DNA from: Stylophora pistillata
Taxonomy: Eukaryota
Assembly: GCF_002571385.2 (NCBI RefSeq)
Contig: NW_019217804.1
Location: forward strand, 526,387 to 590,386
Direction of reading: 5' to 3'
DNA length: 64,000 bases
Below the pieces are notes generated by a model, which worked only from the letters and a program-made list of their open reading frames with translations, had not been told where the DNA came from and did no database searches. Position 1 is the first letter of the stretch. Each line of letters starts with the position of its first letter. The translations under genes were made by a program, and so were the position numbers. This document shows, piece after piece, positions 4,258 through 63,106 of this stretch.

Positions 4258-5972
4258 TTAGATGCAAGTCAACACTTCAGTGAGAACATCCTTCAGTGTG
4301 TAGAGAATGACATAGTTTCTGTAAGTCTTCACCACATCATCAGTTATGGTTACACTCTACAAAAGTAAAAAAAAAAAGAAACATTATTGATTAAAATTTC
4401 ATGTCTAAATATTGGTTTTATTTTTTTAAGTTTTTTCGCTATGATAGTGTTGAAAATCACTGTAAAGATCCTCTACTTATGCTTAATTTGATGTTTGGCA
4501 ACTTGAATTTAGTAAGATATGTAAGAAAGTTAAATGATGCATGTAAGACTCGTATGAAAAATTAACACTTGACGCCAAACACTACATTTTCTAGAGGTTT
4601 CAACGAAGACTGAGAACGGGATACCTCTTAGATTCTATACCGCTTTGGGGTTCGTATTTCTTTTTTAGTTTGCGTTTTGCTTTATGTATCCTTTACAGTT
4701 GAAGGAATGATTATCATTTGAATCCTTTTTTTCTTACCACACGTTTGTTATTGACCATCGCCTGTAAATATGCTTTAGTATAATGATCCAGGCTCGTCTC
4801 TGAGATGTGCTGAACAGCGGGTATTGAGGCACCAGTTTTCGTTATCTTAGATTTAACAAAGGGTAAATATTAGTGGCGGAAAAAAATAGGCAACACTGAC
4901 AATTTACGTTTCTTTGCACTGGGCTTCAAAGCTGGAACAACAATATTTTGAGTCTGCTCAGCTAGCTAGTCTTTGGGTATTCGCTTCCTTTCTAAAGCCT
5001 GTGCGATTTTTATTTCGTCGACGTATGGCGACTTAGCTACTTTATTCCACCATCAGTGAAAAAAATGTAAGTCTCCCCATAAGCGAATTGTAATATTAGA
5101 AGGAAGGTAACTTACCTCGCGTCTCACTCTCCACACTGTAGTATTTAGGTGAAAACTGGTGTCTTTGAGTGCACTTGCCAACACTTTGTGCTGAGATCCT
5201 TTAGCTTCCTCATATGAGTAAGCCAAGTATAGTGGATGGATGAAGTTGTAAAGGTGCATAAAAGCAATCGAAAAGTTGTCTTTCTTTTGCTGAGCAGAAC
5301 CAAAAAACACAGAAATTATGCAAATTGTTATCATTTTATAGTGCCAGTGACTTACAGAGGAGAAAGTTTTGTCAATCATTTACCATAGTTTGGTGTTATA
5401 CTTTAGTGCCAGTGCCTCAGACCCCTACGCGTCTGGAGAAATCACTCGCTCTTGTTTCTCTGTTTTGCCCTGTATTTGGCTATTGCCTCCGAGTTAGATT
5501 GATAAATAACCATGCTTGAAATGTTTATCCGTTTAAAATGTCCTTCCGCTGACTGAAAAAAGACTTTTCCTCAAAAAAAAAAAGTCGAAAGGTGAATTTC
5601 TTCATACTCACAAGATCTGAGGAACATACAGTCGTGTCAGCCACTCCAAGAATGAGGGACGTCTCCTTTAGATCCCAGTTAGAAGCTATGAATTGATGGA
5701 CCTTTAACATCTGCGGATAAAATAACGATGTTTTGCTTTAAAAAATTCTGAAAGTAGTGTTTTACAAGCAGCTTTACTTCAGAAGTAGAAGCAAGAGAAT
5801 AAATATGCGAATACCGTACCTCTTTTGTGGCGTTGGATCTTGATGGCATAAGTGAAAGTCTGATGACAATTTCAGCATCACTTGGTCGGTAACTCGTCGG
5901 AGCTGTCCAAGCCACTGCGCTCATTGTGGTTACTATAAATACGGCAGCGAACAAGTACTTGCAGAATTCCAT
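4258..5972 (-). CDS. Secreted helical-cytokine-like protein, copy A (210 aa, 5 coding exons)
   Basis: Exons 5972-5820, 5710-5612, 5289-5116, 4845-4738, 4356-4258; all introns GT-AG and phase 0. Protein: MEFCKYLFAAVFIVTTMSAVAWTAPTSYRPSDAEIVIRLSLMPSRSNATKE/MLKVHQFIASNWDLKETSLILGVADTTVCSSDL/QKKDNFSIAFMHLYNFIHPLYLAYSYEEAKGSQHKVLASALKDTSFHLNTTVWRVRRE/ITKTGASIPAVQHISETSLDHYTKAYLQAMVNNKRV/SVTITDDVVKTYRNYVILYTLKDVLTEVLTCI*. Hydrophobic N-terminal signal peptide. The gene model is well supported; the cytokine label is inference. Confidence 0.85.
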
Positions 5973-8900
5973 TTCTAGTGAACCAAAATTTGATTAGCAA
6001 AGTCAGAGTAGAATCCCACAGAGTATAATGATTCACATGACAAGGGCACTCCTATCATTTAACGCAAGCTGCGAGGAATCTTTTGGTAGCTAATTCGTTA
6101 CTTAGTCTTCAATAATTCCTGGTCGCTTTTGGTAAAGATTTATCCGGAGGAAAGTCAGGTCGAATTTAGTTTCCCTTAGGTTGAATAATAAATGGAAGAA
6201 GACATGTCTTCAAGAGGGATGTTTTAAAACCCGTGTGAAGAAAAGGTTTTAAAGTGTAAATTCCGTTAACATAAATTTCCAGTCTCTTAATACAGGGTAT
6301 CGAGAGATGTAACTCCTCACTTTCACAATCAATTCGACTTACCTTTTCTCCTGATTCAAATCTTGCCTTGGCTTCTTTTGCTGTATCTAGAATAAATTGA
6401 AGGTGAAGTGCGTTTTGACTGACTCTTATACCAAACCAAAAGGAAGCTGTTTTATCTTAGGTGTATTCCTGGTTAATCATTTTCCGTTTTTTTGTCGTTC
6501 GTTCGTTCTGTAAATGAATCATTTTGAATTCATAAGTTTTGAACCGTGTTAACTGTTCCTTCCGTAGCAGTCTAACAATCCATTCTTGTTTTTATTAAAT
6601 GGATTTGGTAAGTTATGTTTGGTATGCAGTAATTCTGACTCCGCGAAACTAATGCAACTTCACAGATTTATGCTATTTCGCATGCAGTATAAATTCAAGG
6701 GGCTGTAAATTCCATATGGATGTTGACAAATTATTTGCGTTAGGTAAAACAAATGCTCCTTATCGGTTTACAACAATCCAGAAAGTTGTAAAGCCCCTGG
6801 AAAACTAGGTATCCGGGAAAATTTGATTTAACTGGTCACGATCCTGATTTTTCTTTATGGATAAGTGGACTTCGTTTATCGCTTCCGCCTCTTCAACGGC
6901 AATGCACCAAGGTTCTTGGTAAGAAAGGAAACAATCACTCAAAAGAAAAGCGTGACAACAAATATCTTAAGTATCTCATCTAATCACGAGATTAGACGAG
7001 AGGTAGTACAATGAGAGACGAATTAATGTTATTGTGATGTATCATTATCGAAAGATATTTTGGCTGGTGTTTGCTTAGACACATCTTTGAGAATTTTATC
7101 ATCAAAAGCGCGTGCCGGGCCTTTCAGGTTTAATGATAAACTGAAATATTCTCAATGTGAGGTTCGTGTTGACGTAACTTTATTTTCATGTCGTTTGATG
7201 CACAAAACCAGCCGCTATCACCGGAAATGGGTGATTAGTTTATGGGTTTCGCCCGCTCATTGGTAAGAAGCGTTCTATTTGTATTTTGTCACTGTTCTTC
7301 GTAATATCAAGGATGGTGGAGTCGGAGGAATGAATGATTTGTGGCAATCAGTGCTTTGACAATACACCAACAGATAATTTCGTGGCATAAGAGGATAGAA
7401 TTTGTCATTTGAATTTTCTCGTTCTTTGATCATAATCTTAAATGACTAGAAACAGAAAATAGAGTTTGTATACAGTGAGGGATGAGTTCTTCCTTCTTGT
7501 TACATGTATGATTAAACGTTGTGATGGTGAGAGAACACTAGTACAGATAAAATAATCACGACCAAACAACGATCATTCACACTGTGTGTATCGGTGCCAT
7601 GAACTGTCTATGCACGGCATATGTCCATTAAACATGCCAGTCGCTTTTATAGAAGACGTAGAATCCGTGCTCGAAAGTTAGGGCCCCCGCAAGTATATCC
7701 TAGCCTTTGCGTGAGAAGCTTGGCGTTTTCCGCGTGCTAGAAAACATTAAAAGGTAAAATGTTTTAAATATGGGGCTAACAATAGCTGCAAAAAAATCCT
7801 TTATTTTTGTTTAGATCTATAGCGTTAGTTGTAGGATTTCAATATCGTTCCTTATGAAAATGTATTCAGGAAAATTATGTCTAATATCGTTGATTTCCTC
7901 AGTTGATGCCTTAACAATCCTTTTTCATCTTCACCGGTAAACGTGCAAATTTCCGGTTTTCGTAAAGTGTCTATTAGTAGTTCTTGGACGATCGCCAAAT
8001 AAGATTGTGACAACATGCACTTTATCATGACACGTACCATAAAGTAGATATTAGGTTTGGTTCATGTTGAGTATGTTCATTCAAATTGACGTCATGTGTC
8101 TGATGACGCGGAGGCGGCGTTTAAGACTTAATCTTCAAGTCGTCCAGTCAAGGTTTAGAATTACAATAACACGTTTGCAAACCTCACGCTTAATGGAAGT
8201 TCATCATTCATTTGGACTTTTTGATTGAGTCTTGTCGGAAAAACCTTCTCTCGGTTATGCCAGACGTCAGTAGATCCTATTTCGTGTTTTCCAACTTGGA
8301 GATAAATTCTCATATAATCTAAGGCATCACTGTACATAGTTATCATCTTTGTTTAAAAGAGAATAGGCGAATGGATCGATAAATACAGAAGTATAAGTAA
8401 ATGTAATGAACTATAAAAGAAAAAGGAAAGAAAAACAAAGACTACCCTGATTTTTGTATGGCCGTGTACTACTAGACGATAATCGACTCGAAATACCATT
8501 CTTTGCGGAGTTGTCTGTAAATAATATCTACCAGTCTCTCTCGTGATGGCAAGGATAGAAGCATGGAAATGAACAGTATTTCCCGATGAAATACATTTTA
8601 TGATAACTTTGTTTCAGAGCAGTTAAGCCTCTATTATCTCTGTGAAATGTTCAGCAAGCATCCGTGGACGATAATCCTACTCTTGTAGGTTGGATTTGTT
8701 TGGTCTTTTGTTAACGAGCGAAATTAAGGCTTTCGTGAATTTTTACAGATACCACAATGTATGAGGAAAACAGAACACACTATCTGTTTTTTCAAAGGCT
8801 TTATTGTTAATTTAACAACACCTCGCATGTAATTTGCATTTTATATTCTAACAGTGAATCTTTAAAATACAATGATTATCATCAGTTACACGGTAGATAC

Positions 8901-10610
8901 TGGTCTCAAAATGGACTTTTTCAAATGTTTCTTTCTATATTTACAGAGCTTGCAGTCGATTTAAGAACGAGGAACTCCAAGTCAGGATAAAGATGCCCTC
9001 CATTTTTTGAGTCTTAGCTAAGGTACTTTTTGAATTATTTTTCATACTGAACCGGTTTTTTTTTTTATCCTCCTGAAGAATTTTTCCTTAATGAATACTG
9101 ATTGTTATGCAGTAATTTTGACTCCCAGAAACCAATGCGATTTCACAGATCTATTAAGGAAAAACGCGTTTATCTTACAGTGTAAATGGGAATGGCAATG
9201 TAATCCATTGATAGATTTTAACAACGTACTTGCTTTTGGTCAACTAAATTCTATTTATCGGTTTACAAATATCCCGAAACCATAAAAGCCCCTGAAAAAG
9301 AGGGCATCCGAGAGATCTTTAATTTAATTGATCACAATCCTGATTTTTTTCTTTGCAAGTCGATCTCGTTTATCGTTTCCGTCTCCTTAATGGTAATGCT
9401 CTATCAAGGTTCCTGGGAAGAAAGGAAGAAAAGCTGCGTTCATAGCTGCAATCAGGAAAAGTGAAAGCGTGACAACAAATAGCTGACGAATCTTCTATCA
9501 TTATAGAGCTTAAGAGAAAATAACGAGAATGAGACATACCATGGTTTATTGTTTTGTATCATCATCTGTAGATGATGTGTCTGGTGTTTAGCTGAACGCA
9601 TATTTGAAATGTTTTTTATTCAAGGGCGTGCGGGGCCCTTAGGTTAAATGATCACTTGATATATTTACCATGCGACTTCTGTGTTGTCGCAGGGACCAAG
9701 ACAGCCGTTATCACCGGAAATGGGTCATTAGTTTACGGATTTATGTCCTTAACTTGATTGCTGATATGCGATGTGTTTGTACTTTGTCACTCTTCTCAGT
9801 AATAAGGAATACGTCAAGAGGCAGTTATCTAAATTAAAGTCATGAGCAAAATATCCCATTTGGTGACTTGACGTTACATGAACAGACGACTTCAATTTCA
9901 TTCTTTGAATGTTGTTGTTCGATATTTACAATTTACCATCCCAAGGAAGGGAGAATTGACTTCGAATATCGCGAACAGATGATTTCTTCCTTCTTGATTT
10001 AATCAAAAAATAAATTATAACGGCGACAAACCATATGTGACCTGAAGACGACCTTCATGAAAAAAAACACAGTTATGATAAATATAAACAGAGCGCATCT
10101 GTACCCTGTACTATTCACGAGATGTTCGTTAGTGTGCTAGTCGCTGCTACAAAGCACAGACGAGACAATTATGACTTTCTTAAGTGTATCCCACCCTTTG
10201 CATGAGAATTATGGCGTTTGTGCGTGCTGGAAATATTAAAAGGTCAAATGGTTGTCTTAACTTGATGTTATGAATACTGGGCGATCAACAGCTGACAAGA
10301 CAATCCTTTCTTATGTTTAATAGTTTAGTGTTACCTTTAAGTTAACAATACCATTCCCCTGAAAGCATATCCGGGAAAACTATTTTCTAATCTTTCTTTT
10401 CCTCAATCGATGCATCAACAATCTTTTTTCATTTTCACCGGTAAACGTGTAGATATCCGGTTTTGGTAAAGCGTTCATAACCTCCATGTACGTTAAGGTT
10501 CCGTTCTTACTTAAACGATCAGCGAAAGAAGAGTGTGACAACAAGCACTTCATGACATGTATCATAATTTATCAAAGAGAAGAGTTGCAAAATTGATGAC
10601 TTATCCAAAT

Positions 10611-10841
10611 ATATGAACTTCATATATTCATTGTATCTGATTTATCATCACAGGTTTATTACGAATCAACTTAACGGCCTGTTCCCAGTTGGCTTGTTAG
10701 CTCAATTGGTAGAGCGCTGCACTAGTATAGCAGAGGTCAGTGGTTCGAATCCCGTACAGGCCTGATTTTTTTCAGGTCTGATTTTCGCTATTGCATAAAT
10801 AGCGCTCTCTACTGCGAGGATCGTGCATCATACGTATCCAT
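10611..10841 (+). mobile_element. tRNA-derived SINE-like insertion
   Basis: tRNA-like core at 10691-10763: GGCTTGT/ACAGGCC acceptor stem, A-box TAGCTCAATTGG, B-box GGTTCGAATCC, imperfect anticodon stem, followed by a T-run and extra body sequence. Absent at the homologous position of the other tandem units (about 16085 and 31170). Boundaries approximate. Confidence 0.7.
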
Positions 10842-12124: not shown

Positions 12125-13802
12125 TTAGATGCAAGTCAACACGTCAGTGAGAACATCTTTCAATGTGTACAGAATGACATAGTTCCTGTAAGTCTTCACC
12201 ACATCGTCAGTTATGGTTAAGCTCTGCAGAAAAGAAAAAAAAAAGGATATTATTGATTAACACTTCGTACATTTATATTCAATATTGCTCTTTTAAAGTT
12301 GTTACTGTGATGGTGTTAAAAATTATAACTATCTTTGCAATATGCTAAAATTAAGTACCTTGAAAGTTAAATGATGCATGCAAGGAACATATTGAAAATA
12401 ACACCTGCGGACTGTCTCGATAGTCCAGGCCTTGACAACATTAAGAGTCTCTTAGGTTTCAAAGATCATTGAAAATTTCAAATCTTAGATTCCATCTGAT
12501 CTTACAGTTAAAGAAATGCATATATCCCACAGTGATATTATTTTTCTCTTACCACACGTTTGCTATCGACCATTGCCTGTAAATATGTTCTACTGTAATG
12601 ATCCAGGCTCGCCTCTGAGATGTGTTGAACAGTGGGAATTGAAGAGCCAGTTTTCTTTATCTGCGATTCAAGAAAACATAAACATCAGTTTTTTCATATT
12701 TATACACGGAAAAAAAAAGGCCTGCTTACTTATAATTACATTAGCATTCAGTTTTAGAGGCGGTACAACAATATTGAGTCAGAGTTCTGTGAAGGAAAAA
12801 AGACAATTTCTTCACGCATCTGGGAGGATTAAACCGTTCGACGCAATTATTTTCGGACTTTTCGCAGTCCATTTTGTTTAGTCTTAAGCCATTCTCGGTC
12901 CATCCTGGTCCACTCTTGGTGGTTTTTAAGTCCCTTCATGAGGGAATAGTTCATTTTAAAAGTTACTTACCTCGCGTCTCACTCTCCACACCGTATTATT
13001 GAGATGAAAACTGGTGTCTTTGAGCGCACTCGCCAACACTTTGTGCTGGGATCCTTTAACTTCTTCATATGAGTATGCCAAATATAGTGGATGAATGAAG
13101 TTGTAAACTTGCATAAAAGCAATGGAGAGGTTGTCTTTTTTTTGCTGAAGAGAATTAAAAAACCCGAAATTATGCAAATATTTAATAGATATGTAACAGT
13201 GCTAGTGACTTACAGAAACTCAAGTTCTGCCAAACGTCTTGTCATCCTATGGTGATTTCTGTAATGAGTTTTCGTCAAAAAATTTACTGAGTATTAGACA
13301 CCTGTTTGCAGGCTTAAAAAAATTATTTTGAAAACTGAGCCAGGAAGTGCGCGTAAAAGAGATCAGTAAAATGTGATGTTAAACAGTTTAAAAATTTTTA
13401 ATCTAACTTAAAGTAGATAAAAAACTTGAAGTTCCCAATACTTACCAGACTTGCCGAACATACTGGTGTGTCAGCCACTCCAAGAGCCAGGGGCGTCTCC
13501 TTTAGATCCCAGTTAGAAGCTATGAATTGGTAGACCTTCAACATCTGTTGATAAAATAGCAATAGTTTACCGAATAAGCAACTTTGTAAGGATCGTTTCA
13601 CGAGCAGCTTAATGGTGAAGTACTATAAAAATATACTTTGATGTCCTACCTCTTTCGTGGCGTTAGCTCTTGTTCGCATAAGTGACAGTCTGATGACAAT
13701 TTCAGCATCACTTGGTTGGTAACTTAACGGAGCTGTCCAAGTCACTGAACTCATTGCAGTTACAATAAAAAGGGCAGCGAACAAGGACTTGTAGAATTCC
13801 AT
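12125..13802 (-). CDS. Secreted helical-cytokine-like protein, copy B (210 aa)
   Basis: Exons 13802-13650, 13544-13446, 13144-12971, 12660-12553, 12223-12125; GT-AG, phase 0, open frame; ends SLTITDDVVKTYRNYVILYTLKDVLTDVLTCI*. Confidence 0.85.
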
Positions 13803-17400: not shown

Positions 17401-17469
17401 GTACCAATGCAAGTCATAAGTGAATAATTTGCTCTGCCAGAGAGAAATTCGTTCAGTAACATAATAGCT

Positions 17470-18604
17470 TTAGATGCAAGGCAGCACGTCAGTGAGAACA
17501 TCTTTCAATGTGTACAGAATGACATAGTTTCTGTAAGTCTTCACCACATCGTCAGTTATGGTTAAGCTCTGCAAAAAGGAAGAAAAAAGAACATTGTTGA
17601 TTTAATATTTCGTACATGTAGATTCACTTAAGGTTGTTACGGTGATGGTGTCAAAAATTATAACTATTTTTTGCAAATGCTAAAATTAAGTAACTTCAAA
17701 GTTAAATGATGCATTGAAGGAACATATGAAGAATAATAGTTGCGAACTGTCTCGATTTTGCAGGCCCTGACAATAGTGTCTCTATTCAAGTTTCAAAGAT
17801 CACCGAAAATGTCAAATCTTAGATTCTATCCAGTTTTACAGTCGAAGGAATACATGTAAATCACATCGATGTTTTTTCCCTTACCACGCGTTTGTTATTG
17901 ACCATCGCTTGTAGGTATGTTTTAGTATGATGATCCAAGCTCGCCTCTGAGATGTGTTGAACAGTGGGAATTGAAGAGCCAGTTTTCTTTATCTGTGATT
18001 CAACAAAAGATAAACATAAGTATTTCAGATTTATTAAGGAAAACAAACAAGGCTTGCTTACTTATAACTAGGTANNNNNNNNNNNNNNNNNNNNNNATCA
18101 AAATCCTCTTTATAAGGTCTGTATCCAACAACCGGTGAAAGAGTTTAGCAGAACTGTGAACAAACTTTGGTGTTTACCATTTGTTTTATAACATAACATT
18201 GATACATTGTAACAAGAGTTCCCTTTTATTTAAAAAATCTTACCTGATCAGAAAAAACAAGCGCGCGCGGTAAAATAGTCTTAGCATTTGCACACGTCAG
18301 CAGCATACACCCATGGGCAAATAGTAGATGCTGAATTAACCAATCATAGCGCGCGCTTTTCTTTAGTTATGTTATAAAAGCAACTTTGCAAGCATCCTTT
18401 CGCAAACAGCTTAATAGGGAAGTACTATATAAATTTATTTGGATCTCCTACCTCTTTCGTGGCGTTAGCTCTGGTTGGCATAAGTGACAGTCGGATGACA
18501 ATTTCAGTATCACTTGGTCGATAGCTCAACGGAGCTGTCAAAGTCACGGAGCTCATTGCAGTTACTAAGAATAGGACAGTGAACGAGGACTTGCAGAATT
18601 CCAT
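17470..18604 (-). CDS. Secreted helical-cytokine-like protein, copy C (incomplete: exons 2-3 missing at assembly gap 18075-18096)
   Basis: Exon 1 18604-18452 (MEFCKSSFTVLFLVTAMSSVTLTAPLSYRPSDTEIVIRLSLMPTRANATKE), exon 4 17992-17885 and exon 5 17568-17470 (ends DVLPCI*) are all intact with GT-AG sites. Confidence 0.65.
18097..18377. mobile_element. Repeat/MITE-like insertion in intron 1 of copy C
   Basis: Not homologous to intron 1 of the other copies. Inverted repeat TTATAACATAAC (18186-18197) / GTTATGTTATAA (18366-18377). Abuts the N gap. Confidence 0.55.
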
Positions 18605-22082: not shown

Positions 22083-23855
22083 TTATATGCAAGCCAACAC
22101 GTCAATAAGAACATCTTTCAGTGTGTACAGAATGACATAGTTCCTGTAAGTCTTCACCACATCGTCAGTAATGGTTAAGCTCTGCAAAAGTACAACAGAT
22201 TATATTGTTGATTAAAATTTCGTGCACATATATTTACTTTACTCTTTTAAGGTTGTTACTGTGATAGTGTTAAAAAGTGTAAATATCTTTTCTAAATGCT
22301 AAAATTAAGTTCCTTGAAAGTTAAATGACGCCTGCAAGGAACATATGAAAAATAACACTTGCCGATTGTCTCGATAGTTCAGACCCTCACAACATTAAGA
22401 GTCTCTTTTTAGATTTAGCGCTGACTGAAAATGATATATCGTAGATTCTATCCAGTTTTATAGTTAAAGAAATGCATGTATTTCTCATCGTATCTATTTT
22501 CTCTTACCACACGTTTGTCATTGACCACTGCTTGTAGGTATGCTCTAGTATAATGATCCAGGCTCGTCTCTGAGATGTGTTGAACAGTGGGTATTGAAGA
22601 GCCACTTTTCTTTATCTGTGATTCAAGAAAAGATCAACACCAGAATTTTCAAATTACACAAGAAAACAAAGAAGCCCTGCTTTCTTATAATTACATTAGC
22701 GTTCAGTTTTAAAGGCGGAACAGCAGAATTGTGAGTCAGAGTTTCGCGAAAGAATAAAGATAACTTCTTCATGCATCTAGGAGAATCGAACTGTTCGACA
22801 CAATTACTTTTAGGCTTGTTATTTGCAGTCCATTTCTGTGTAAACAGTCTATCCTGGTCCACTCTTGGTTTTTGTGTGCCCAAGAAAGTTAGTATTTGAA
22901 TGTTCGTGTTCTTTCTAAACCGTATTCCGCTAAAATCTCTGGGCCATAAGTGAAGTAGAGTCTTCACCAGATCAAAACATAAGTCCCTTCATGAGGGACT
23001 AGTTAATTATAGAAGTGACCCACCTCGCGTCTCACTCTCCACACCGTATTATTGAGATGAAAACTGGTGTCTTTGAGCGCACTCGCCAACACTTTGTGCT
23101 GAGATCCTTTAACTTCCTCATATGAGTATGCCAGATATAGTGGATGGATAAAGTTGTAAAGTTGCATAAAAGCAATGGAGAGGTTGTCTTTCTTTTGCTG
23201 AAGAGAATTTTACAAAAGCCGAAATTATGCAAATGTTTAATAATTATGTTACAGTGCCAGTGACTTACAGAAACTCAAGTTCTACCATGCTTTTTATCAC
23301 CCTATGGTGATCTTCGTAATGAGATATCGTCAAAGTTTTACTTGGTATTAGTCATTTGTTTTACAGGCTTAAGGTAGTTATTTTGAAAACGGAGCCAGTA
23401 AGTGTGCGTGGAAGAGATCAGCAAAATGTGCTGTTAAACCGTTTTAAAGGTTTAATCTAACTTAAAGTAGATAAAATACTTGTAGTTCCCAATACTTACC
23501 AAACTTGAGGAACATACTGGTGTGTCAGCCACTCCAAGAGCCAGGGACGTCTCCTTTAGATCCCAGTTAGTAGTTATGAATTGGTAGACCTTCAATATCT
23601 GTAGATAAAATAGCAATAGTTTACGATAAGTAAGTTGCAAAGCATCGTTTCACAAGTAGCTTAATAGTCAAGTACTTTAAGAATGGTATTTTAATAGCCA
23701 ACCTCTTTCGTGGCGTTAGCTCTGGTTGGCATAAGTGACAGTCTGATGACAATTTCAGCATCACTTGGTCGGTAACTCAACGGAGCTGTCCAAGTCACTG
23801 AGCTCATTACAGTTACAATGAAAAGGGCAGCGAAGAAGGACTTGCAGAATTCCAT
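22083..23855 (-). CDS. Secreted helical-cytokine-like protein, copy D (210 aa)
   Basis: Exons 23855-23703, 23598-23500, 23197-23024, 22615-22508, 22181-22083; GT-AG, phase 0, open; ends RNYVILYTLKDVLIDVLACI*. Confidence 0.85.
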
Positions 23856-26982: not shown

Positions 26983-28741
26983 CTAGATGCAAGTCAGCAC
27001 GTCAATGAGAACATCTTTCAATGTGTACAGAATGACATAGTTCCTGTAGGTCTTCACTACATCGTCAGTTATGATTAAGCTCTGCAAAAGTAAAAAAATA
27101 CATATCGTTGATTTCGTGCATATATATTCACTTTACTCTTTTAAGGTCGTTGCTGTAATGGAGTTAAAAATTGCAAATATCTTTTCCAAATTCTAGCATT
27201 ATACTCCTTGAAGGTAAAATGACGCATGCAAGGAACATATGAAAAATAAGACTTGCCGATTGTCTCGATAGTCCTGGCCCTGACAACATTTAGAGTCTCT
27301 TTTTAGATCTAACGCTCACTGAAAATGTCAAATTGTAGATACTATCCAATTTTTACAGTTGAAGGAGTGCATGTATTTCTCATGGATTTTTTTTCTCTTA
27401 CCACACGTTTGTTAGTGACCATTGCTTGTAAGTGTGCTCTAGTATTATGATCTAGGCTTGTCTCTGAGATGTGTTGAACAGTGGGTATTGCAGAGCCAGT
27501 TTTCTTTATCTGTGATTCAAGAAGGATAAACACCAGTTTTTCAGATTTATACAAGAAAACAAACCAGGCCTGCTTACTTATAATTACATTAGCATTCAGT
27601 TTTAAAGGCGGAACAGCAGTATTGTGAGCCAGAGTTTCGTGAAGGAAAAAAGACAATTTCTTCATGCATATGGGAGGGTTAAACTGTTCGACGCAATTAT
27701 TTTTAGGCTGGTTATTTGCAGTCCATTACTGTGTAATCCTATGTTATTGTCGTTCCATCTTGGTCCACTCTTGGTTTTTGTGTGCCCAAGAAAGTTAGTA
27801 TTTGAATGTTCGTTTTCTCTATAAAACCGTATTCAGCCATAATCTCTCTGCCATGAGTGAAGAAGAGTCTTCACCAGATCAAAACATAAGTCCCTTGGGG
27901 AAGTGACCTACCTCGCGTCTCACTCTCCACACGGTAATATTGAGTTGAAAACTGGTGTCTTTTAGCGCACTCGCCAACACTTTGTGCTGAGATCCTTTAA
28001 CTTCCTCATATGAGTATGCCAGATATAGTGGATGGATAAAGTTGTAAAGTTGCATAAAAGCAATGGAGAGGTTGTCTTTCTTCTGCTGAAGAGAATTTTA
28101 CAAAAGCCGAAATTATGCAAATGTTGAATAATGATGTTAAAGTGCCAGTGACTTACAGAAACTCAAGTTCTACCATGCATTTTATTACCCTCTGGTGATC
28201 TTCATAATGAGATATCGTCAAAGTTTTACTTGGTATTACTCACTTGTTTTACAGGCTTAAGGTAGTTATTTTGAAAACGGAACCAGTAAGTGTGCGTAAA
28301 AGAAATCGCAAAATGTGATGTTAAACTGTTTAAAAGGTTTAATCTAACTTAAAGTAGATAAAAAACTTGTAGTTCCCAATACTTACCAAACTTGAGGAAC
28401 ATACTGGTGTGTCAGCCACTCCAAGAACCAAGGACGTCTCCTTTAGATCCCAGTTAGAAGCTATGAATTGATAGACTTTCAACATCTGTAGATAAAATAG
28501 CAATAGTTTACGATAAGCAAGTTGGCAAGCGTCGCTTCACAAGCAGCCTAACAGTGAAGTACTTTAAGAATAGTATTTAATATCCAACCTCTTTCGTGGC
28601 GTTAGCTCTGGTTGGCATAAGTGACAGCCTGATGACAATTTCAGCATCACTTGGTCGGTAACTCAACGGAGCTGTCCAAGTCACTGAGCTCATTACCATT
28701 ACAATGAAAAGGGCAGCGAAGAAGGACTTGCAGAATTCCAT
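26983..28741 (-). CDS. Secreted helical-cytokine-like protein, copy E (210 aa)
   Basis: Exons 28741-28589, 28485-28387, 28085-27912, 27509-27402, 27081-26983; GT-AG, phase 0, open; ends RNYVILYTLKDVLIDVLTCI-TAG. Confidence 0.85.
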
Positions 28742-32504: not shown

Positions 32505-34270
32505 TTAGACACAAGTCAACGCATCAATGAGAACATCTTTCAGTGTGTACAGAATGACATAGTTCCTGTAAGTCTTCACCACATCGTCAGTTATGGTTAA
32601 AGTCTGCAACAGAAAAAGAGAAAACAATACTTTTTATTAAAATCTCGTGAATATATATTTACTTTATTCTTGTTGTTCTTTACTCTGGTTGTTACTGTGA
32701 TAGTGTTTATAACCTTTCCAAGTCCTAAAATTTTTGTTTGGCAGCTTTTGAAATAAGCAAGATAAGTACCTTGAAAGTTCAGTGGTGCATATTAAGCACG
32801 TATGAAAAATATCACCTGCGGACTGTCTTTCTTAACATTCCGGGCCCTGATAAGATAAAGTGTCTCTCTTCAAGTTTCAATGATCACTGAAAATGTCAAA
32901 TCTTACTTTTCATTTCGCTTTAAAGTTGAAGGAGTACCTAAGATGGATGTTTTTTTTTTCTTACCACTCGTTTGCTATTGACCATCGCTTGTAGGTAAGT
33001 TCTGGTATGATGATCCAGGCTCGCCTCTGAGATGTGTTGAACAGTGGGAATTGAAGAACCGGCTTTCTTTATCTGTGAATTAAAAAAAAAGAGAATTATC
33101 AGTTTTCCAGATTAAGAAAGGAAAAAAAGACAAGGCCTGCTTCCTTAAAACTTCTTTTAGTTATCAGTTTTAAGGGCGGAATAGTAGTATTGTGAGTAAC
33201 AGTTTTGTGAGGGAAAAAAGCAATTTCTTTCTTTACGTTGGAGGATTAAACTGTTCTACACAATTATTTTTAGGCTCGCCATTCTTGGTCCATCTTGGTC
33301 AACTCTCAGTTCATGTGTGCCCAAACTAGTTTAGTATTTGAATGTTCGTTTTCTCTCTCAAACGCCATAATATCGCGGCCATAAGTGGAGTAAAGTCTTA
33401 ACGAGATCAAGCTATAAGTTCCTTTCATTATGAAGGTAACTTACCGCACGTCTCACTCTCCACACCGTGTTATTCAGGTGAAAACTGGTGTCTCTGAGCG
33501 CACTCGCCAACACTTTGTGCTGAGATCCTTTTACTTCTTCAATTGAGTATGCCAGATATAGCGGATGGATGAAGTTGTGAAGTTGCATAAAAGCAATGGA
33601 GAGGTTGTCTTTCTTTTGCTAAAAATAAATGAAAAAAACCGAAATTATGCAAATGTTTAATATGTTTTAGTGCCAGTGACTTACAGAAACGCAAGTTCTG
33701 CCACGCATTTTATCTTACTATGGTGTTCTCTGTAATGAGCTATCGTCAAAATGTTACTCAGTTTTACACACATGTTTACGGGCTCAAGTATTTTTTTTTT
33801 AAAACAAAGCCAGGAAGTGCGCGTAAAAGAGATCAGTAAAATGTATGTTAAACCGTTTAAAAATTTTTATCTAACTTTCAGGAGATAAAAAACTTTAAAG
33901 TTCCCAATACTTACCAGACTTGAGGAACATACTGGTGTATCAGCCACTCCAAGAGCTAGGGGCGTCTCCTTTAGATCCCAGTTAGAAGCTATGAATTGGT
34001 AGACCTTCAACATCTGAAGATAAATTAGCAATAGATTACACTAAACGACTTTGCAAGCACTGTTTCTTAAGCAGCTTAACAGTGAAGTACTTTAAGAATG
34101 ATATTTTGATGTCCTACCTCTTTCGTGGTGTTAGCTCTTGTTGGCATAAGTGACAGTCGGACGACAATTTCAGTATCACTAGGTCGATAGCTCAACGGAG
34201 CCGTCCAAGTCACGGAGCTCATTGCAGTTACCATGAATATGGCAGAGAAGAAGGACTTGCAGAATTCCAT
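32505..34270 (-). CDS. Secreted helical-cytokine-like protein, copy F (210 aa)
   Basis: Exons 34270-34118, 34013-33915, 33618-33445, 33072-32965, 32603-32505; GT-AG, phase 0, open; ends TLTITDDVVKTYRNYVILYTLKDVLIDALTCV*. Confidence 0.85.
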
Positions 34271-36747: not shown

Positions 36748-36852
36748 TTGTTTGTTATTGGCCATTGTTTGTTGGTATGCTCTAGTACGATTATCTAGGC
36801 CCGCCTCTGAGAGGTGATAAGCAGTGAGTATTTGATAATGAGTCTTCGTCAT
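36748..36852 (-). pseudogene. Relic of a further family member: degenerate exon 4 only
   Basis: MTKTHYQILTAYHLSEAGLDNRTRAYQQTMANNK aligns with exon 4 (IKKTGSSIPTVQHISEASLDHHTRTYLQAMVNNK). Acceptor mutated CAG to CGG. Flanked by an intron-3 remnant and a promoter remnant (TTCCGGATGACTCA near 37145). Other exons are absent. Confidence 0.7.
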
Positions 36853-39051: not shown

Positions 39052-39339
39052 GATTTCCAATTTTATTTAAGCAGCCATCATTAATCCATGGGCAGTGAAG
39101 TTCCGTTCTAACTAAGACGATTACCAAAGGCAGAGTTTCATCTTTCATAATATATAAAAAAAGGGACTGTAATGATGGTAAGGTAGGGGTCCAGCCGATT
39201 ATAATTACTCAAATTGACTTAAGTTGCTTACACGCTTTTGGCTTATATCAATCTCCAAGTCCTCCAGTTAGGGTCCAGGATCTCTATGAAAGGTCTGCCG
39301 TGGCAATCCCTTTGCATTCAATATCGCAGGTTTTTCAAA

Positions 39340-40165
39340 ATCATTTGTAGCGCATACATGTCTATTACCGAACAGACGTACGGCAACAACAATCTATTTG
39401 TCAAGTAAAGTTCTCGGTCGTTCATTTGTAGAGCACAAATGTCTATTGCTAAACAGACGTACGGCAACATCAATTTATTTTCCAAGAAAAGTTCTCTGCA
39501 GTTCATTGGTGGAACATGACTGTCTATTACTGAACAGACGTACGTCAACATCAAATTATTTGTCAAGAAAAGTTCTGTGCAGTTCATTTGTAGAGTACTG
39601 TCCATTGCTGAACAGACGTGCGTCAACATCAATCTATTTGTCAAGTAAAGTTCTGTGCAGTTCATTTATAGAGCACAAACGTCTATAGCCGAACAGAGGT
39701 ACGGCGACACAAATCTATTTGTCAAGTAAAGTTCTCTGCAGTTTATTTATAGAGCACAAATGTCTATGGCCGAACAGAGGTACGGCGACACAAATCTATT
39801 TGTCAAGTAAAGTTCTCTGCAGTTCATTTATAGAGCACAAATGTCTATAGCCGAACAGAGGTACGGCGACACAAATCTATTTGTCAACTAAAGTTCTCTG
39901 CAGTTTATTTATAGAGCACAAATGTCTATAGCCGAACAGACGTACGGCAATATCAATTAATTTGTGAAGAAAAGTTCTCGGCCGTTCATTTGTAGAGCAA
40001 AAGTGTCTATTGCTGAACAGACGTACCGCAATATCAATCTATTTGTCAAGTAAAGTTCTTTGCAGTTCATTTGTAGAGCATAACTGTCTATTACTGAACA
40101 GACGTACTGCAACATCAATCTATTTGTCAAGTAAAGTTCTCTGCAATTCATTTGTAGAGCATAAA
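39340..40165. repeat. Minisatellite, 81-bp unit, about 10 copies
   Basis: Unit of the form CTATTGCTGAACAGACGTACGGCAACATCAATCTATTTGTCAAGTAAAGTTCTCTGCAGTTCATTTGTAGAGCACAAATGT; starts at 39362, 39443, 39524, 39602 and 39683, continuing to about 40165. Confidence 0.9.
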
Positions 40166-40632
40166 TGGACGGAATCAGAAAGTCTGGAGCTCGATACATT
40201 CTAGGAATCAGGTTTTTCTCTTTTCTCCCATGTTCGTTACGAGAGGAATAATGACGTCTATCTATTACAACCACAAGTGATCATTGTGTTTTGGGTGACA
40301 ACTTTGTCGTTCCTTAATAGATATTTCGAGATGTTTACGTCTGAACCCCGACTTCCTACACATGAAGAAGACCCAGTGATATTTGTATTAACCAATCTCA
40401 AGATCATCCCTTCTATCACATATCCCTGGTATACTACTAATTAGTGAAGAAAAACTAACTTTATTTTTTCTTTTCCTGATAGTTTATTGTTAATTTAACA
40501 ACAACGCGTTCACGATTGTATCCAGCATTACCTTGTTACAGTATTATCTGTTACAGATATACATATCCACTGATCCTCCTCAGTAACAAAATGATAATCT
40601 CAATATGGACTTACTAATCCTATAAGTACTAT

Positions 40633-40828
40633 TGAATAAAGGCTGATAGTTTTTAAAGAAACTGTTTGGGGCTGCGTCGGTGGAGGTAACGAAATAATTT
40701 GAGTATATCAACAAAGTTGAAATGGTAAATTGGCCACCGTTACGATTATAAAAGCTGACGTTTCGAGCGTTAGCCCTTCGTCGTAACGGTGGCCAATTTA
40801 CCATTTCAACTTTGTTGATATATTCAAA
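40633..40828 (-). mobile_element. Second copy of the Penelope-like/hammerhead element, with inverted partial duplication
   Basis: Reverse complement of the 38898 element, plus an inverted arm (40698-40745 vs 40781-40828). 13-bp TSD CTATAAGTACTAT at 40620-40632 and 40829-40841. Confidence 0.75.
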
Positions 40829-41093
40829 CTATAAGTACTATAATGAGTGCACTTTAACACTCACGCAACACGCAGGTGTCTCTTAACGTAAGTCTGATTT
40901 AAGATTAAGAAAAATGCTAAATCCTAAGAAGAGAGTTTTCTAATGAAGATTTTAAACTAAGTATATGCATGAACTATAATGAAGACACTACTTCTACCGA
41001 AAGTTTCTATTACTATATTACTTAGATTCTTAAACGATTCTTAAAATTTTCTGTTATTAAAGTTTGCAATATCTGTAATAATTTAGTACTCTA

Positions 41094-43163
41094 CTATGGA
41101 AGGACAAGTTGGTTTCTGGTTGCATTAGCTCGCCACAAGCACTGATTCAAAACCTCTTGGATAACATCTTTCAAGGTGTAGAGGATGACATAGTTACGAT
41201 ACCTCTTCACCATGTCGTCAGTAATTGTTCCGGTCTGAAAAATAAAAGTTAAATACTTAATTATCTATCACAGAGATATATCTTGAACCTGGAACCACAT
41301 TAGTGGACATATACATATTGATAGTCGTTAGACTTTATCATACTTAAGTACAACGGGTTGATTATCCATTAATTATCTGTTACAGAGATATTTCTTGAAC
41401 CTGGAACCACATTAGTGGACATATACATATTGATAGTCGTTAGAATTTATCATACTTAAGTACAACGGGTTGAGGTATGAAAGCGTATCATTATTATTAG
41501 CTGTAGTCTTTACAAATTGAACAAAAAGAATGTGGATGACGATACGGTACTGCTCTTTTCTTTTGCTTGGTGCTCATACTAGGGCTCGTATTAACTATGA
41601 TCTCGAAGCAGTGGAGTTTTCTATTCACCTTTTCAATGAGCCCATTCCACCTTCCCCCATTGGGATGGTAAAATTCTTAATTTCTCTTCTCATTAGGCTC
41701 ATATTTGCGTTCTATAGTATGTCTTTACATGGTAAGAACTTTGAAAAATCGTTCCACTGAATGAAAACACGCAACATACCACAAAGTTTGTCAAATAATT
41801 TCGAGATTTCTGGTCCAGGTTTGCCTCAGGAACTGATGTGGGTGTCGATGGTACTGGATATGAATTCTTCCTTAGCTGAAATTTTGGCAACAAAGTGTAT
41901 CATTAGGACATTTGAATCATATGAATTTTTCTCGGAAACGTAAGCAAAACAATGACATTAGCTACTAAGAATTTAATAAGTCTGTCCTGACGTAAAAATA
42001 AATAAGTAAATAAGTAACTAAATAGGTAAGGAATGAACTTTCAGAGGCAGAACAGACACACAATTAGGAATAGAGGGTTCGACAAATTTTACTTCAAGTT
42101 CTTTAGTTCGCCACGAATTCGCCACGAAAAGAAACAAACCTTTATTTCGTCTATTTTTGTTTTTATGTTTGTTTGCTTGTTTTTTTTTTTTTTCAAGTTT
42201 CATAACCCCTATGCTTGTTGATAAAAATATCATTTCGCATTCTCACCACATGGCGCAATCTCATCACCGTGTTGTTCAGGTGCTGGCTGACGTTCAAGAG
42301 CAGATCTTTCAGCATCTTGTTCTGGGGTGTCTGTGCTACTTCATAGGAGTACGCCATGAACACTGGATTCATGAAGCTTTTCATCTTGGCATAAGCAATG
42401 GTAAGGTTGTCTTTTCTTTGCTTTAAAGAGAGAAATGTCCAAAGCAATAAGCTTTTTTTGTAGTTCCATAACCCTTACCTAAGTAAAAGGCTTGTCACCC
42501 ATAGAGCGGACAGGTATCAAAAAGTTACGGATACTCCCTTTGTGTTCTTCAGTATTTTTGTTGTTTCTGTAAAGTTATGCTTAGGCGGTGTTGTTGGGAA
42601 TACTTACCAAAAGAGTTCTGCCTTATTCGGTATGTTGTTGGGAATACTTACCAAAGGAGGTCTGCCTTATCCGCCTTAGGTTTGAGGGTATTTTGCGATT
42701 GGGTTTCGAAGGTAAACAGAATAACATTGTTTTTACAACTTATAACATTTACCACCTCGTTATATACTGTAAATCATACACTGTACAAGGAAGTACCTTG
42801 TTTGAGTCGCAAACTTGCGTGTTGGCATCTCCAAGTCTTTGAGCGGTCTCGCTTAAATCATTGTTTGAGGCTATGAAACTGTAGACGTTAAGCATCTGTA
42901 AAATATAGATTTGAGTATAGATGAACGTTTTCTTGAGTTAGGTAACTAGAATACGAAATAAATTACAGAAATCTCAAAAATTGCGTAACATTAATGCGGG
43001 AAAAACTCATACATTTTACCTCTTTGGTAGCGCTAGCGCGAGAGGGTTCCAAGAAAATTCGCATGATGATTTCCACACTTGAATACCTTGCCGCGAAACC
43101 AGTCGAGCTTAGGACCGTTAATGTAAACATGGCAGCGAACAGGAACCCACACTTGAATGCCAT
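41094..43163 (-). CDS. Divergent paralog G of the secreted helical-cytokine-like family (217 aa)
   Basis: Exons 43163-43020, 42895-42797, 42420-42247, 41875-41780, 41234-41094; GT-AG, phase 0. Protein: MAFKCGFLFAAMFTLTVLSSTGFAARYSSVEIIMRIFLEPSRASATKE/MLNVYSFIASNNDLSETAQRLGDANTQVCDSNK/QRKDNLTIAYAKMKSFMNPVFMAYSYEVAQTPQNKMLKDLLLNVSQHLNNTVMRLRHV/LRKNSYPVPSTPTSVPEANLDQKSRNYLTNFV/TGTITDDMVKRYRNYVILYTLKDVIQEVLNQCLWRANATRNQLVLP*. Confidence 0.85.
41261..41473. repeat. Tandem duplication (about 110 bp x2) in intron 4 of paralog G
   Basis: ACAGAGATAT...CTTGAACCTGGAACCACATTAGTGGAC...GTACAACGGGTTGA present twice. Confidence 0.85.
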
Positions 43164-48646: not shown

Positions 48647-51600
48647 CTAGGGGCCATCTCTTGATTTTTTACTTTTTCTTTTAGTCGTGCCATAAGTACA
48701 GGGCGAAACCTGTATCAAGACGTCGTGAAGTGTGTATAAGATTACGAAGTTTCGCAATCGTTTCACAACATCATCTGTTATCGTCAATGTCTGAAAATAA
48801 AACAAACTAAAGTGTAAGCCTATCACTTACAAATTATTCCAAGGACTTAATAGCTCAACCTCGTCTGACTGCATTAAGTGAAAATTTAGCTCTGAGAGCT
48901 TGCGGTTAAAATAAGTAATGTTCCCTATTTGCTACATTTATTCCTTCCCATCAAGTATCTACCTAAAATGAATCGATTTTGTGATGCGATTTCTCTGTTA
49001 AGTCACTCATGGAGGTGATAGGTTAATTATGTGTATGACGCAGAATCTAATGAAAAACATTAAAACCAACACGGCTGAATGTGATAGGTTGGTAGACAAC
49101 TGTTTTTAAGCTCACACGATGAAATGATTTTGAATATCAGCTCTGTGTTATTGGGATCTCTTTTCATTCTATGATATGTAAAGATGGCTTTTGAATATTC
49201 AATTATAAAGGTTTGATTGATTCGATTGGAAGAAACATTTTCTGGGCAACTGCAGTGGAGAGGTTTTCATCTCTACTGTCACTTTGGCCCTTTGATGTAC
49301 TATCCTTGTCCAGAGGACAGGAAACCCTGAAATGTTGTGCGAAATATTCCTCAGTAATACTTCACTTACCACAAGGTTCCTTCTGACCAAGGTTTTCAGG
49401 TAAGTTCCTGTAATGTTATTGAACTGAGCTTCAGATATTACAGGATATTCTGGTGGCCAGATTCCTTCTTGTCTCATCTACAGAACAAAGAGAGTAAAGC
49501 ACGAATATACTAAAAATAAAATGAATAAATGAAGGAAGAGTCAATCAACCTAAAACATCTTGTGATATAAACAATAAAACGGACAATATGACACGAAGAG
49601 AACTGTAGGGGCCATTCTCAATGATCTTCAACAAGCAACAGCGATGGAACACTTTGTATTTCTATGAATCACATTTTCTCATAAGGCATGGTACTGCACC
49701 AAACAGTATAAACTGGCATTAAAGATAGTACTTTGTCCATTGTTTTGCAATTCCAGAATAAGTTAATTGGTTTGTTGTGGTAAAACATTCGTTTTAATTT
49801 GCTGGTAAAAGTAGAAGAATTTTCTAATAATTTTCCTTCTCGTTTAAGGGGATCTAATAATTAAGGGATACACATAAGACGGAAACAACTGTTATGATGC
49901 TAATTCAAAATATTCACTTTATCCTTTTAGTTGCTTCTGAATGGATCCCACATGAATGGTTTTTAGCACACCTTATGTCAGCAATAACTAAATGATATTT
50001 TACTGTTATACAGCGGATTTTTCTCGTAAGCATTACCTGATATCTGATAAAAGATACTGTGGCATTAACCATAACACTCATCGTCCTCAGAACTGATGCC
50101 AAGCTAGTATGATTACGTCCCTGAGAAGTTACGTACAGGACAACGAAGTTCAAAGGGCGCTTGAAAACAGCTAACTGTGAGTGCAGTACACTAAGCTTCT
50201 TTCCAACTTCCTATAAAGTATAATGACTACAATTTTCTCGTCAACCATTCAAACTATTTTCATAAACGTATTCTTAAAAAAAGCCCTGCTTTTGCTATTA
50301 AATGTAAGAAGTAAAAAACACAAAGATTTTAAACCTAAATACTGATCAGTATATTTCACTTAACAAATTGTAATCGCAAACGTTCTCTCAACTTATCTCT
50401 TTTTCTGAAGGCTTTAAAACGTAATTTTGCCTTGCAACTGTGACAAAATGGAATGAGCGTGACAGAAGAAACATGTGACTAGATCACTATTTTGATACTT
50501 GGGAAGAAATAACAAAATGATGTTCATGTTTTGATCTGTCCATTTTGATGTAGCAGTATTGTCTATGTCCATCAAAGCAACAGCATAATGCTGTGGCTCC
50601 AGCCGAAGATATCAGAATATCATCATCTGTAGAGAATGATTATAAATGATACATTTTAAATACTATGTATACCTCAATCAAACTTCACATTAACCAGCAA
50701 TTTTAATTTTCTTATCTTTCTAATATGACACATACTAAAGTCTGACCTCTTCTTTGGGTATCATGTGACATCTTAAAAAGATGCCTGAAATACTTATATA
50801 TTAGTTTGGCCATAGTTATACCAGTATTTTTCATAAGTCATTAGATGGCTATTAAAAGTTTTTCTCTGCATTATACGCATGACAGATAAGTGAGAGACCT
50901 GTTTATGTTTTGAGGTAGAAACCTCACTTAACCTCAAGTTCATAAATGTGCTCGCAAATGAGTTATTTTCAGTACTAGTAAATCAAGAACATTTTCTTTG
51001 ATCCTTTTTTGAAGTGGTCTTATCTTTTGTAGGTCAACCTCGCGGTCCTGCATTTTTTTTTATGAGCTGGAGAATTTCGTTCAAAAGGCTCGTATCGTGA
51101 ATTTTCTCAATAGATTTCCCTTTTCTGAGGAGGTAATATTCACAAAGGAAACTTATCACTGTTTTTCCTCATTTAGAAAATGTAACATCTCTTGCCACAC
51201 AGTAACACAGCATTTCCACCACATGTATTTAAAACTGTAAAAATCATTTTGGTAGGATTTTTATTTTGGCCTAGAGCAACTTTGTACCTTCTCTTTAGTG
51301 CAGTCTTTCCCAAGATTGAGACCGAGAGTAATAGGAGGCTCGTAAAAATAGTCCGAAGAAGTAATGAAAGGGTACAGCAACTTCATCTGTAAGAAAACAC
51401 ATGAACATTTTCAGTTAGCAGATTGCCTAATGTAGTTTTTTACGACTGTTTTTTTTTTTTTACTGTAACGAATTGAGAATGTTTTATGACTCACAAAGCC
51501 TTCAGATTATTACCAAAAGAAATGATTGTTCTGAACGATTTGAAAAAACCAAACTTAGCACAGACCTTGAATGATTGAAGCTTTAACCCATTAAAGTTTA

Positions 51601-51908
51601 AGCCAGCATAGAATCACATCAAAAGGCTAAATTCGCGATAAATTGAAATTGTGGTTTAATCTTTCTCTTTCATATGAATTAAGTCCAGCACGTTTAGCAA
51701 TAAGCAAAGTAATCATGAATTTTGAAGGTTTTCTGACCGTAACCTGAACAGTGGCGTTGTGTATTGCAGGAATAATGATAAGTTTGATCAAGATTGTCGC
51801 GTGGCTTATCCTAAACCTTGGTGTAGATGAATTTGTTGCAGTGGTGGCTGTAGACATTTTCTGTGTAATAAATACCAGGACAAGGAAAACGATCTTCGTC
51901 GACTCCAT
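48647..51908 (-). CDS. Most divergent paralog H of the secreted helical-cytokine-like family (229 aa, basic C-terminal tail)
   Basis: Exons 51908-51744, 51386-51288, 50210-50037, 49477-49370, 48790-48647; GT-AG, phase 0; internal exons exactly 99/174/108 nt as in copies A, B, D, E, F. Protein: MESTKIVFLVLVFITQKMSTATTATNSSTPRFRISHATILIKLIIIPAIHNATVQ/MKLLYPFITSSDYFYEPPITLGLNLGKDCTKEK/EVGKKLSVLHSQLAVFKRPLNFVVLYVTSQGRNHTSLASVLRTMSVMVNATVSFIRYQ/MRQEGIWPPEYPVISEAQFNNITGTYLKTLVRRNLV/TLTITDDVVKRLRNFVILYTLHDVLIQVSPCTYGTTKRKSKKSRDGP*. Confidence 0.85.

Positions 51909-63071: not shown

Positions 63072-63106
<35 letters not shown>

Follow-up and report, generated by a model that had tools for sequence, protein, structure and literature searches.

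A coral tandem gene cluster with a probable IL-6-type helical cytokine fold and a class II-like exon plan

Do the genes clustered in a 64,000-nucleotide (nt) stretch of the Stylophora pistillata genome (NCBI RefSeq assembly GCF_002571385.2, contig NW_019217804.1, forward-strand positions 526,387 to 590,386; hereafter the window, in whose numbering positions are given) encode helical cytokines and, if so, of which class? Self-comparison shows that the first 52 kb of the window is a tandem array of related units, and all of the cluster genes, named A to H here, lie on the minus strand. A preliminary description, made from the sequence alone, took their exon architecture as support for a cytokine origin. 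We find that the cytokine reading holds, but that its weight comes from the predicted fold and the places of the introns rather than from the run of four phase-0 introns (0-0-0-0). We put at about 0.72 the probability that these tandem genes belong to a family, present in corals and sea anemones, of long-chain four-helix-bundle proteins, likely kin of the IL-6/LIF/growth-hormone type and likely acting as a secreted, receptor-binding signal. The models make likely a cnidarian helical cytokine family in which a class I fold is joined to a class II-like exon plan.

Predicted fold of the cluster proteins

The protein modelled, P0005, is identical to the product of gene B (12125..13802; coding exons of 153/99/174/108/99 nt). 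Its AlphaFold2 model, built from a 38-row alignment, has a predicted local distance difference test score (pLDDT) of 88.2 and a predicted template modelling score of 0.81, with helices at residues 32-55(60), 86-112, 116-145, 158-174, and 184-209. The predicted topology is up-up-down-down: four long helices (A-D) are connected through long AB and CD crossover loops, the second of which contains an additional helix. Foldseek listed 48 rows for this model, all of them helical cytokines: 46 belonged to long-chain class I and the remaining 2 were IFN-lambda, which occupied ranks 40 and 50 with a TMq of 0.35, versus 0.57-0.60 for IL-11 and prolactin. VIA-align, searched over 48,161 chains, returned long-chain class I cytokines in each of its top 13 rows, including LIF (Z 14.9, root-mean-square deviation [rmsd] 2.9, 158 aligned), IL-6 (Z 14.6, rmsd 3.5, 149 aligned), CNTF (Z 14.2, rmsd 2.3, 133 aligned), placental lactogen (Z 13.7), IL-11 (13.4), and CLCF1 (13.1), whereas the best class II row reached Z 10.0 and the best non-cytokine Z 7.5. 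The model of an Exaiptasia member (28% identical, pLDDT 77) gave a comparable picture, with IL-6 at 15.3, LIF at 15.3, and IL-11 at 15.2, the best interferon at 11.2, and the best non-cytokine at 7.6.

Language-model features from the ESM Atlas scored 0.93, with 207/256 in common with a cluster in which 11% of members carry LIF/OSM, and the named rows were all long-chain class I (LIF/OSM, cardiotrophin/CNTF, IL-6/G-CSF, IL-12p35, and IL-11; 0.88-0.93), values to be read beside a control in which shuffled proteins reach 0.9 in 4-10 of 100. The third row, a nameless cluster whose 53 proteins (191 amino acids [aa]) come mostly from arthropods, had a feature score of 0.92 and is possibly a further invertebrate helical cytokine family. 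A viral fold library yielded weak rows only (viral IL-10 homologues and HHV-8 ORF K2; E 0.12-1.7).

Exon plan and intron places

Gene A exemplifies how the coding exons map onto the model. Exon 1 (5820..5972, 153 nt) encodes a signal-peptide-like N-terminus and most of predicted helix A; exon 2 (5612..5710, 99 nt) the end of helix A and the long AB loop with the conserved Cys80; exon 3 (5116..5289, 174 nt) predicted helices B and C; exon 4 (4738..4845, 108 nt) the CD crossover loop with its extra helix; and exon 5 (4258..4356, 99 nt including the stop) predicted helix D, the most conserved part, whose last residue is Cys209. Genes D (22083..23855), E (26983..28741), and F (32505..34270) have exons of 153/99/174/108/99 nt, as gene B does. 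Gene G (41094..43163) has exons of 144/99/174/96/141 nt (43163-43020, 42895-42797, 42420-42247, 41875-41780, and 41234-41094), sizes shared by its spliced relatives P0017 and P0019, and the most divergent copy, gene H (48647..51908), has exons of 165/99/174/108/144 nt (51908-51744, 51386-51288, 50210-50037, 49477-49370, and 48790-48647), with P0033 and L032 as spliced relatives.

As initially described, every intron of the seven complete window genes (A, B, and D-H) is phase 0 (28/28, all GT-AG), exon 2 is 99 nt and exon 3 is 174 nt in 7/7, and exon 4 is 108 nt in 6/7, with 96 nt in G. Over the 12 complete genes of the whole cluster, which extends beyond the window, 48/48 introns are phase 0, 47 being GT-AG and one GC-AG; the latter, gene M intron 3 (G000:C21 507200), has the sole non-GT donor among the 48. 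The description of these exon lengths as frozen is too strong: exon 2 is constant in 12/12, but exon 3 is 174 nt in 11/12 (177 in K) and exon 4 is 108 nt in 9/12 (96, 102, or 111 in the others), and relatives of the H type have lost or gained one codon at the exon 2/3 junction, so that the lengths are better called conserved. Nor are all of the paralogs highly diverged. The G and H proteins are (about 50% and 30-38% identical), but the A-F proteins are 80-92% identical, and the window therefore represents three independent lineages (A-F; G; H) and not seven. Even in H the residues shared with A, counted without gaps, are low in number but not negligible (8/33 in exon 2, 17/58 in exon 3, and 10/36 in exon 4). 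If 45-55% of introns are phase 0, four phase-0 introns are expected by chance 4-9% of the time, which makes the 0-0-0-0 pattern alone weak evidence; a 2026 preprint reports the same pattern in 132 sea lamprey genes (bioRxiv 10.64898/2026.05.30.728932).

The places of the introns are more informative. In P0005 numbering they follow residues 51, 84, 142, and 178: intron 1 lies four residues before the end of helix A, intron 2 two before the start of helix B, intron 3 three before the end of helix C, and intron 4 between the CD helix and helix D. Under a uniform null, three of four introns fall within 4 residues of three helix ends with P 0.0024, a value tempered by the use of helix ends from the coral model itself. 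Both predicted helices B and C lie in exon 3, consistent with the single B+C exon that had been proposed as an IL-6-type trait. The human IL6 gene has coding exons of 19/191/114/147/168 nt, sums that agree with the protein lengths, and phase-0 introns after mature residues 42, 80, and 129; in IL11, CSF3, GH1, PRL, EPO, and IL23A the AB exon measures 87-120 nt and the B+C exon 147-180 nt. The alignments of both models to IL-6 start at IL-6 residue 19 (model residues 28 and 43) and, if ungapped along helix A, would put the first coding intron after IL-6 residue 42, which we take to be the site of the human IL6 intron; this comparison uses a residue mapping derived from range ends instead of a full alignment, which lessens its force.

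The correspondence with vertebrate helical cytokine genes is of two kinds. On the model, introns 1-3 likely stand at places matching IL-6-type genes, near where helix A ends, helix B begins, and helix C ends, while intron 4 would match the IL-10/interferon plan, in which the final helix is encoded by a terminal exon of about 93-102 nt. We know of no intron before helix D in the IL-6, IL-11, G-CSF, GH, prolactin, or EPO genes. The full-text literature searched, in which subscription journals are mostly missing, contained no paper giving class I intron positions.

The count of five exons and four introns stands for the coding part, but an extra intron in the 5′ untranslated region (UTR) had been overlooked and adds a sixth exon. 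In gene A this putative intron spans 5975..6342, with a donor common to the paralogs and an AG acceptor 2 nt before the ATG, and a TATA-like box lies at 6424-6430; genes A-F share both the upstream donor and the TATA-like box. The AG likewise precedes the ATG by 2 nt in 10/12 complete genes (K 0, G 11). In gene H the intron spans 51911..52601, and the 5′ UTR of the spliced contig L032 matches DNA lying upstream of its donor (75% identity along 69 nt, E 7e-7), with the join 2 nt ahead of the ATG. If read in the coding frame, the upstream intron would be phase 1, and the first intron of IL-6-type genes is phase 1. The Pocillopora model P0018 begins two residues farther upstream, as would be expected if the first exon held a very short coding piece. 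Flanking signals were too weak to use, both the AU-rich pentamers 3′ of A-E (4-6 per 700 nt versus a background of 2.5) and the scattered promoter motifs of the interferon-stimulated response element and gamma-activated site types.

The same gene structure invites a competing explanation, namely that these are class II helical cytokines, a cnidarian form of interferon- or IL-10-like genes. Exons of 99 and 174 nt fit the sizes of class I genes (87-120 and 147-180 nt) better than those of class II genes (60-78 and about 150 nt), and the fold points the same way: with either model, class I rows score 4-5 Z units above class II rows, fish IFNa aligning at Z 10.0-11.2, and IFN-lambda appears only far down the Foldseek ranking. 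The five-exon, four-phase-0-intron plan is nonetheless that of class II cytokine genes, as the preliminary description held and as three sources agree (PMC4929537; PMC5332411; bioRxiv 10.64898/2026.05.30.728932). The features used to screen for interferons (five coding exons, 0-0-0-0, about 200 aa, a signal peptide, and five helices; bioRxiv 10.64898/2026.05.30.728932 and PMC4929537) are seen in these genes or predicted for their products, and tandem clustering and an intron upstream of the start codon fit as well, the last being described in PMC5332411 for many type III interferon (IFN-lambda) genes. Conversely, the Foldseek screen of that preprint, as far as its available text goes, places no interferon fold outside chordates, and the sole genome match to the Tissue_fac profile, on contig C256, is a generic Ig-FN3-membrane gene that we did not take as a class II receptor. 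We consider class II membership very improbable: the exon plan shares the 0-0-0-0 pattern with the IL-10/IFN class, as first proposed, but by fold that class comes behind the long-chain class I cytokines of the IL-6 type.

Because the junctions were chosen by homology and GT/AG sites, phase 0 is partly a product of construction, and transcript evidence had been called for. Its answer was divided. Sixteen stored proteins were compared with the exon plan. In P0011, P0013, P0016, and P0019, which represent the A-F, K, J, and G types on Logan contigs measuring 1.0-2.1 kb, the five exons stand back to back, and in the H-type P0033, P0117, and P0118 the exons are contiguous but the exon 2/3 junction is shorter by one residue; such Logan contigs presumably represent spliced mRNA. 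P0119, P0036, P0131, and distant members had no clean placement on the plan. The 19 metagenome loci include one spliced contig of the H type, L032, with its exons joined at the predicted places and an exon 4/5 junction that matches genomic L047-L050 exactly, and four genomic loci that contain complete genes (99/174/108 or 111 nt, phase-0 GT-AG sites) with 42-75% identity per exon. After 4 spliced fragments and one unrelated repeat protein were set aside from 70 profile-search fragments, Val, the mark of an in-frame GT donor, directly followed the exon in 49/52 read-through open reading frames that span exons 1-4 and come from other genomic contigs. Spliced relatives hence confirm the junctions, but gene A itself has no joints in the RNA runs described below.

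Extent of the family and weighing of the evidence

A profile search of 1.84 billion representatives gave 91 matches at E ≤ 0.001, one of which is an unrelated repeat protein. The 10 matches whose sources were looked up included no insect protein, and members were found in Stylophora, Pocillopora, Montipora, Acropora, Exaiptasia, Actinia, and Nematostella, that is, in four coral genera and three sea anemones (Hexacorallia). Named database entries of the family are all "uncharacterized" or "hypothetical". In a tree of 29 rows, three anemone proteins stand apart and the H type forms the deepest coral branch, which is weakly supported (81/87) in a midpoint-rooted tree with long branches. Columns that hardly vary are concentrated where helix B ends and where helix D begins, all 12/12 complete Stylophora genes retain two Cys, and N-glycosylation sequons are present in family proteins. 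A hydrophobic N-terminus without a later membrane segment was seen in 8/8 proteins checked, and the protein length fits about 160-200 aa for the mature form, in the class I cytokine range.

Several observations weigh against a cytokine identity. Foldseek gave no match at E ≤ 0.001 (best 0.024), with identities of 6-16%; the coral and Exaiptasia models were built from one 38-row alignment and are therefore not independent; and, according to a caution issued with the aligner, a common helical arrangement can by itself give Z values below about 13, the top rows reaching only 13-15. P0005 has no Pfam match at E 10, none relevant was obtained among 38 members at E 1, no cytokine occurred among 15 PDB sequences at E 10, and helix D alone had no match in the Pfam and PDB sequence searches, which likewise did not bear out a suspected likeness of helix D to growth hormone. 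No splice joint was found on gene A (3600-7000) in 8/8 RNA runs, which is not a test of expression: contigs of runs X1, X2, and X3 cover the gene A introns and so resemble DNA, X4 and X7 gave 2-3 short pieces on the gene, and the raw reads of X13, X16, and X19 contained 0 on it (2-19% of each run, without a control stretch). The profiles IL6Ra-bind, EpoR_lig-bind, FERM_F2, STAT_bind, and STAT_int had 0 genome matches in a search that is insensitive on split exons; since it missed even STAT, this blank on receptor, JAK, and STAT shows little. Finally, PMC3670263 describes the canonical JAK with its pseudokinase, together with the assembled pathway, as bilaterian, and the sea anemone STAT as lacking a transactivation domain.

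These observations give some room to a second explanation, in which a secreted helical bundle serving in mucus, skeletal matrix, defence, or venom converged on this shape with no cytokine kinship, and the phase-0 introns reflect chance and paralog descent. Sequence similarity to cytokines is not detectable, 0-0-0-0 has the chance frequency given above, paralogs inherit one gene plan so that all copies count as one event, and helical bundles easily reach middling Z. Against convergence, the match runs through all four helices and the two crossovers in their proper sequence, over 149-166 residues, whereas ferritin-like bundles align over about 100 residues at Z under 7.6; the language-model features independently point to the same cytokine families; and the introns sit at helix ends. 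We judge convergence unlikely and common ancestry with the helical cytokines highly probable. Subfamily is another matter: the profiles IL6, IL11, LIF_OSM, CNTF, GCSF, and Hormone_1 had no match, so the family cannot be filed under any one vertebrate subfamily, a result that does not speak against membership of the superfamily. By prediction from the model, the proteins work like an IL-6-type cytokine.

In addition to its seven complete five-exon genes, the window holds one interrupted gene, C (17470..18604), with exons 1, 4, and 5. We rejected a reading of gene C as a pseudogene produced by deletion: its exons 2-3 coincide with the N run of an assembly gap (18075-18096) and are present (99 and 174 nt) on the unplaced contig C2998, which is 99.8% identical to 17111-18073, and gene C is intact. 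A genome search gave 15 exon-5 matches, 14 on contig C21 and 1 on C2998, and upstream of the window the cluster continues with five further complete genes (I-M) and partial copies beside assembly gaps. A weak match on contig C395 with the Exaiptasia protein is not a paralog. A second copy of gene A exon 5 (1276..1374) lies inside 1-1399, a 94.6% duplicate of 2993-4381 that adjoins an N run and is likely a haplotype overlap of the assembly. An isolated, decayed exon 4 without an AG acceptor, a relic of a further copy, lies at 36748..36852. Second, damaged copies of exon 5 also occur downstream of intact genes in other corals (L034:6318-6407 and L042:3095-3184), indicating that partial duplications recur in the family. 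Between A and B, a repeat-unit remnant (8400-10600) with promoter and downstream DNA, in which no coding exons were found, is likely a lost paralog.

The Stylophora protein P0004 is 100% identical to gene A exon 3. In the public gene models P0001, P0002, P0004, P0015, and P0038, neighbouring paralogs are fused or exons skipped, which would hide the family from structure screens. P0003, a 265-aa protein on a 1238-nt Logan contig, has G-type exons 1-3 followed by A-type exons 3-5 and may result from read-through splicing between paralogs, recombination, or an assembly chimera.

Other features of the window include a single tRNA-Thr(AGT) predicted by ARAGORN between genes A and B (10691-10763, plus strand), which may be a tRNA-derived repeat, and an 81-bp tandem repeat between F and G (39341-40167; ten copies, open in several frames, no Pfam match). 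A short dispersed element with an internal inverted repeat is present in both orientations at 38896-39054, 40636-40832, and 56496-56739 (copies 93-97% identical) and is likely a miniature transposon. The neighbouring gene at 59557-63153 (minus strand) has an exon with a CAP (cysteine-rich secretory protein) domain (Pfam E 8.8e-16) and also a 529-codon Thr/Pro-rich, mucin-like frame.

Signalling and comparison with known cytokine systems

The sequence and model features suggest how such proteins might act. The product would be a glycosylated, secreted monomeric bundle with one disulfide, which may link the AB loop with the C-terminal end of helix D. Receptor contacts could be formed by the conserved residues at the start of helix D and at the end of helix B, and binding could cluster a fibronectin-type cytokine receptor and, in an immune or stress response, signal to STAT. 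The abundance of young paralogs might reflect birth-and-death duplication, by analogy with interferon loci. We regard a secreted ligand as probable and give the route through a cytokine receptor to STAT even odds. PMC6797617 reports the class I receptor CRLF3 in cnidarians, and one survey cites JAK and STAT in Cnidaria but contradicts itself on the point (PMC13203501).

The proteins could instead be true helical cytokine kin with another type of receptor, such as a receptor tyrosine kinase, or with a hormone-like growth role in place of an immune one. CSF-1, SCF, and IL-34 signal through a receptor tyrosine kinase; IL-34 (Z 8.5-8.7) and SCF (Z 6.4-6.5), however, score lower. Prolactin/placental lactogen and growth hormone score as high as the interleukins (Z 11.8-14.5), and the bilaterian standing of the canonical JAK would also favour this possibility, whereas the rapid tandem duplication and relic copies resemble immune loci, a resemblance that is only suggestive. 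We think this alternative improbable and retain the reading of an IL-6-type secreted signal.

A further possibility, to which we give somewhat less than even odds, is that the family keeps the gene plan of the common class I/class II ancestor on a class I-like fold and predates both the cnidarian-bilaterian split and canonical JAK-STAT. The ancestral plan would have had an intron beside the start codon, three phase-0 introns common to both classes, and a fourth that long-chain class I genes lost. If so, an inducible signal resembling IL-6 and interferon would exist in corals and Nematostella and would be the ligand that cnidarian immunity has lacked. The cytokine reading itself, if true, would date the superfamily before the cnidarian-bilaterian split, connect the gene plan of class I with that of class II, and supply a concrete ligand for testing in the antiviral and symbiosis-related responses of Nematostella and Exaiptasia.

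Earlier work, in the parts consulted, found IL-6-family ligands only in vertebrates, plus insect Upd (PMC13203501; PMC8226699, which searched Cnidaria by BLASTP), and the 2026 screen found interferon-type 0-0-0-0 genes in chordates only (bioRxiv 10.64898/2026.05.30.728932). The full-text literature searched held no report of a cnidarian helical cytokine family, and the available text of PMC1963337 and PMC4172062 has nothing specific on this one. PMC6797617 states, with reference to Babonis and Martindale and to Liongue et al. 2016, that cnidarian ancestors already possessed the four-helix bundle; the idea may therefore not be wholly new, and a prior mention is possible.

Among known systems, the Drosophila ligand Unpaired (Upd1-3), from an invertebrate, has been likened to IL-6 and is described as signalling via Domeless/JAK/STAT (PMC8226699 and PMC13203501), a likeness by description only. 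The class II cytokines (IL-10 family, IFN-lambda, intron-containing type I, and lamprey/lancelet interferons) share with the coral genes the five coding exons, the 0-0-0-0 phases, gene clustering, and, in many IFN-lambda genes, a 5′ UTR intron. Their last exon, of about 99 nt, also codes the last helix, whereas their fold scores are lower (Z 7-11) and the coral helices and exons 2-4 are longer. Growth hormone, prolactin, and placental lactogen belong to the top group by fold (placental lactogen Z 13.7 and 14.5) and have a B+C exon of 165-180 nt versus 174 in the coral, but the coral proteins have no Hormone_1 Pfam match, only one disulfide candidate, and a fourth intron.

The IL-6/gp130 group (IL-6, IL-11, LIF, CNTF, CLCF1, OSM, and IL-27p28) and G-CSF differ from the coral family in sequence (6-16% identity), in its own Cys pair, and in its fourth phase-0 intron before helix D. 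The 1-0-0-0 plan of IL-6-type genes, with a phase-1 intron inside the signal peptide, is a typical but not universal class I feature, and the coral upstream intron lies instead in the 5′ UTR. The likenesses are the predicted fold and topology (Z 11-15), a mature length of about 185 aa in the coral, an extra helix in the CD crossover such as IL-6 has, a single exon for helices B and C, probably the sites of three phase-0 introns, and an intron next to the start codon.

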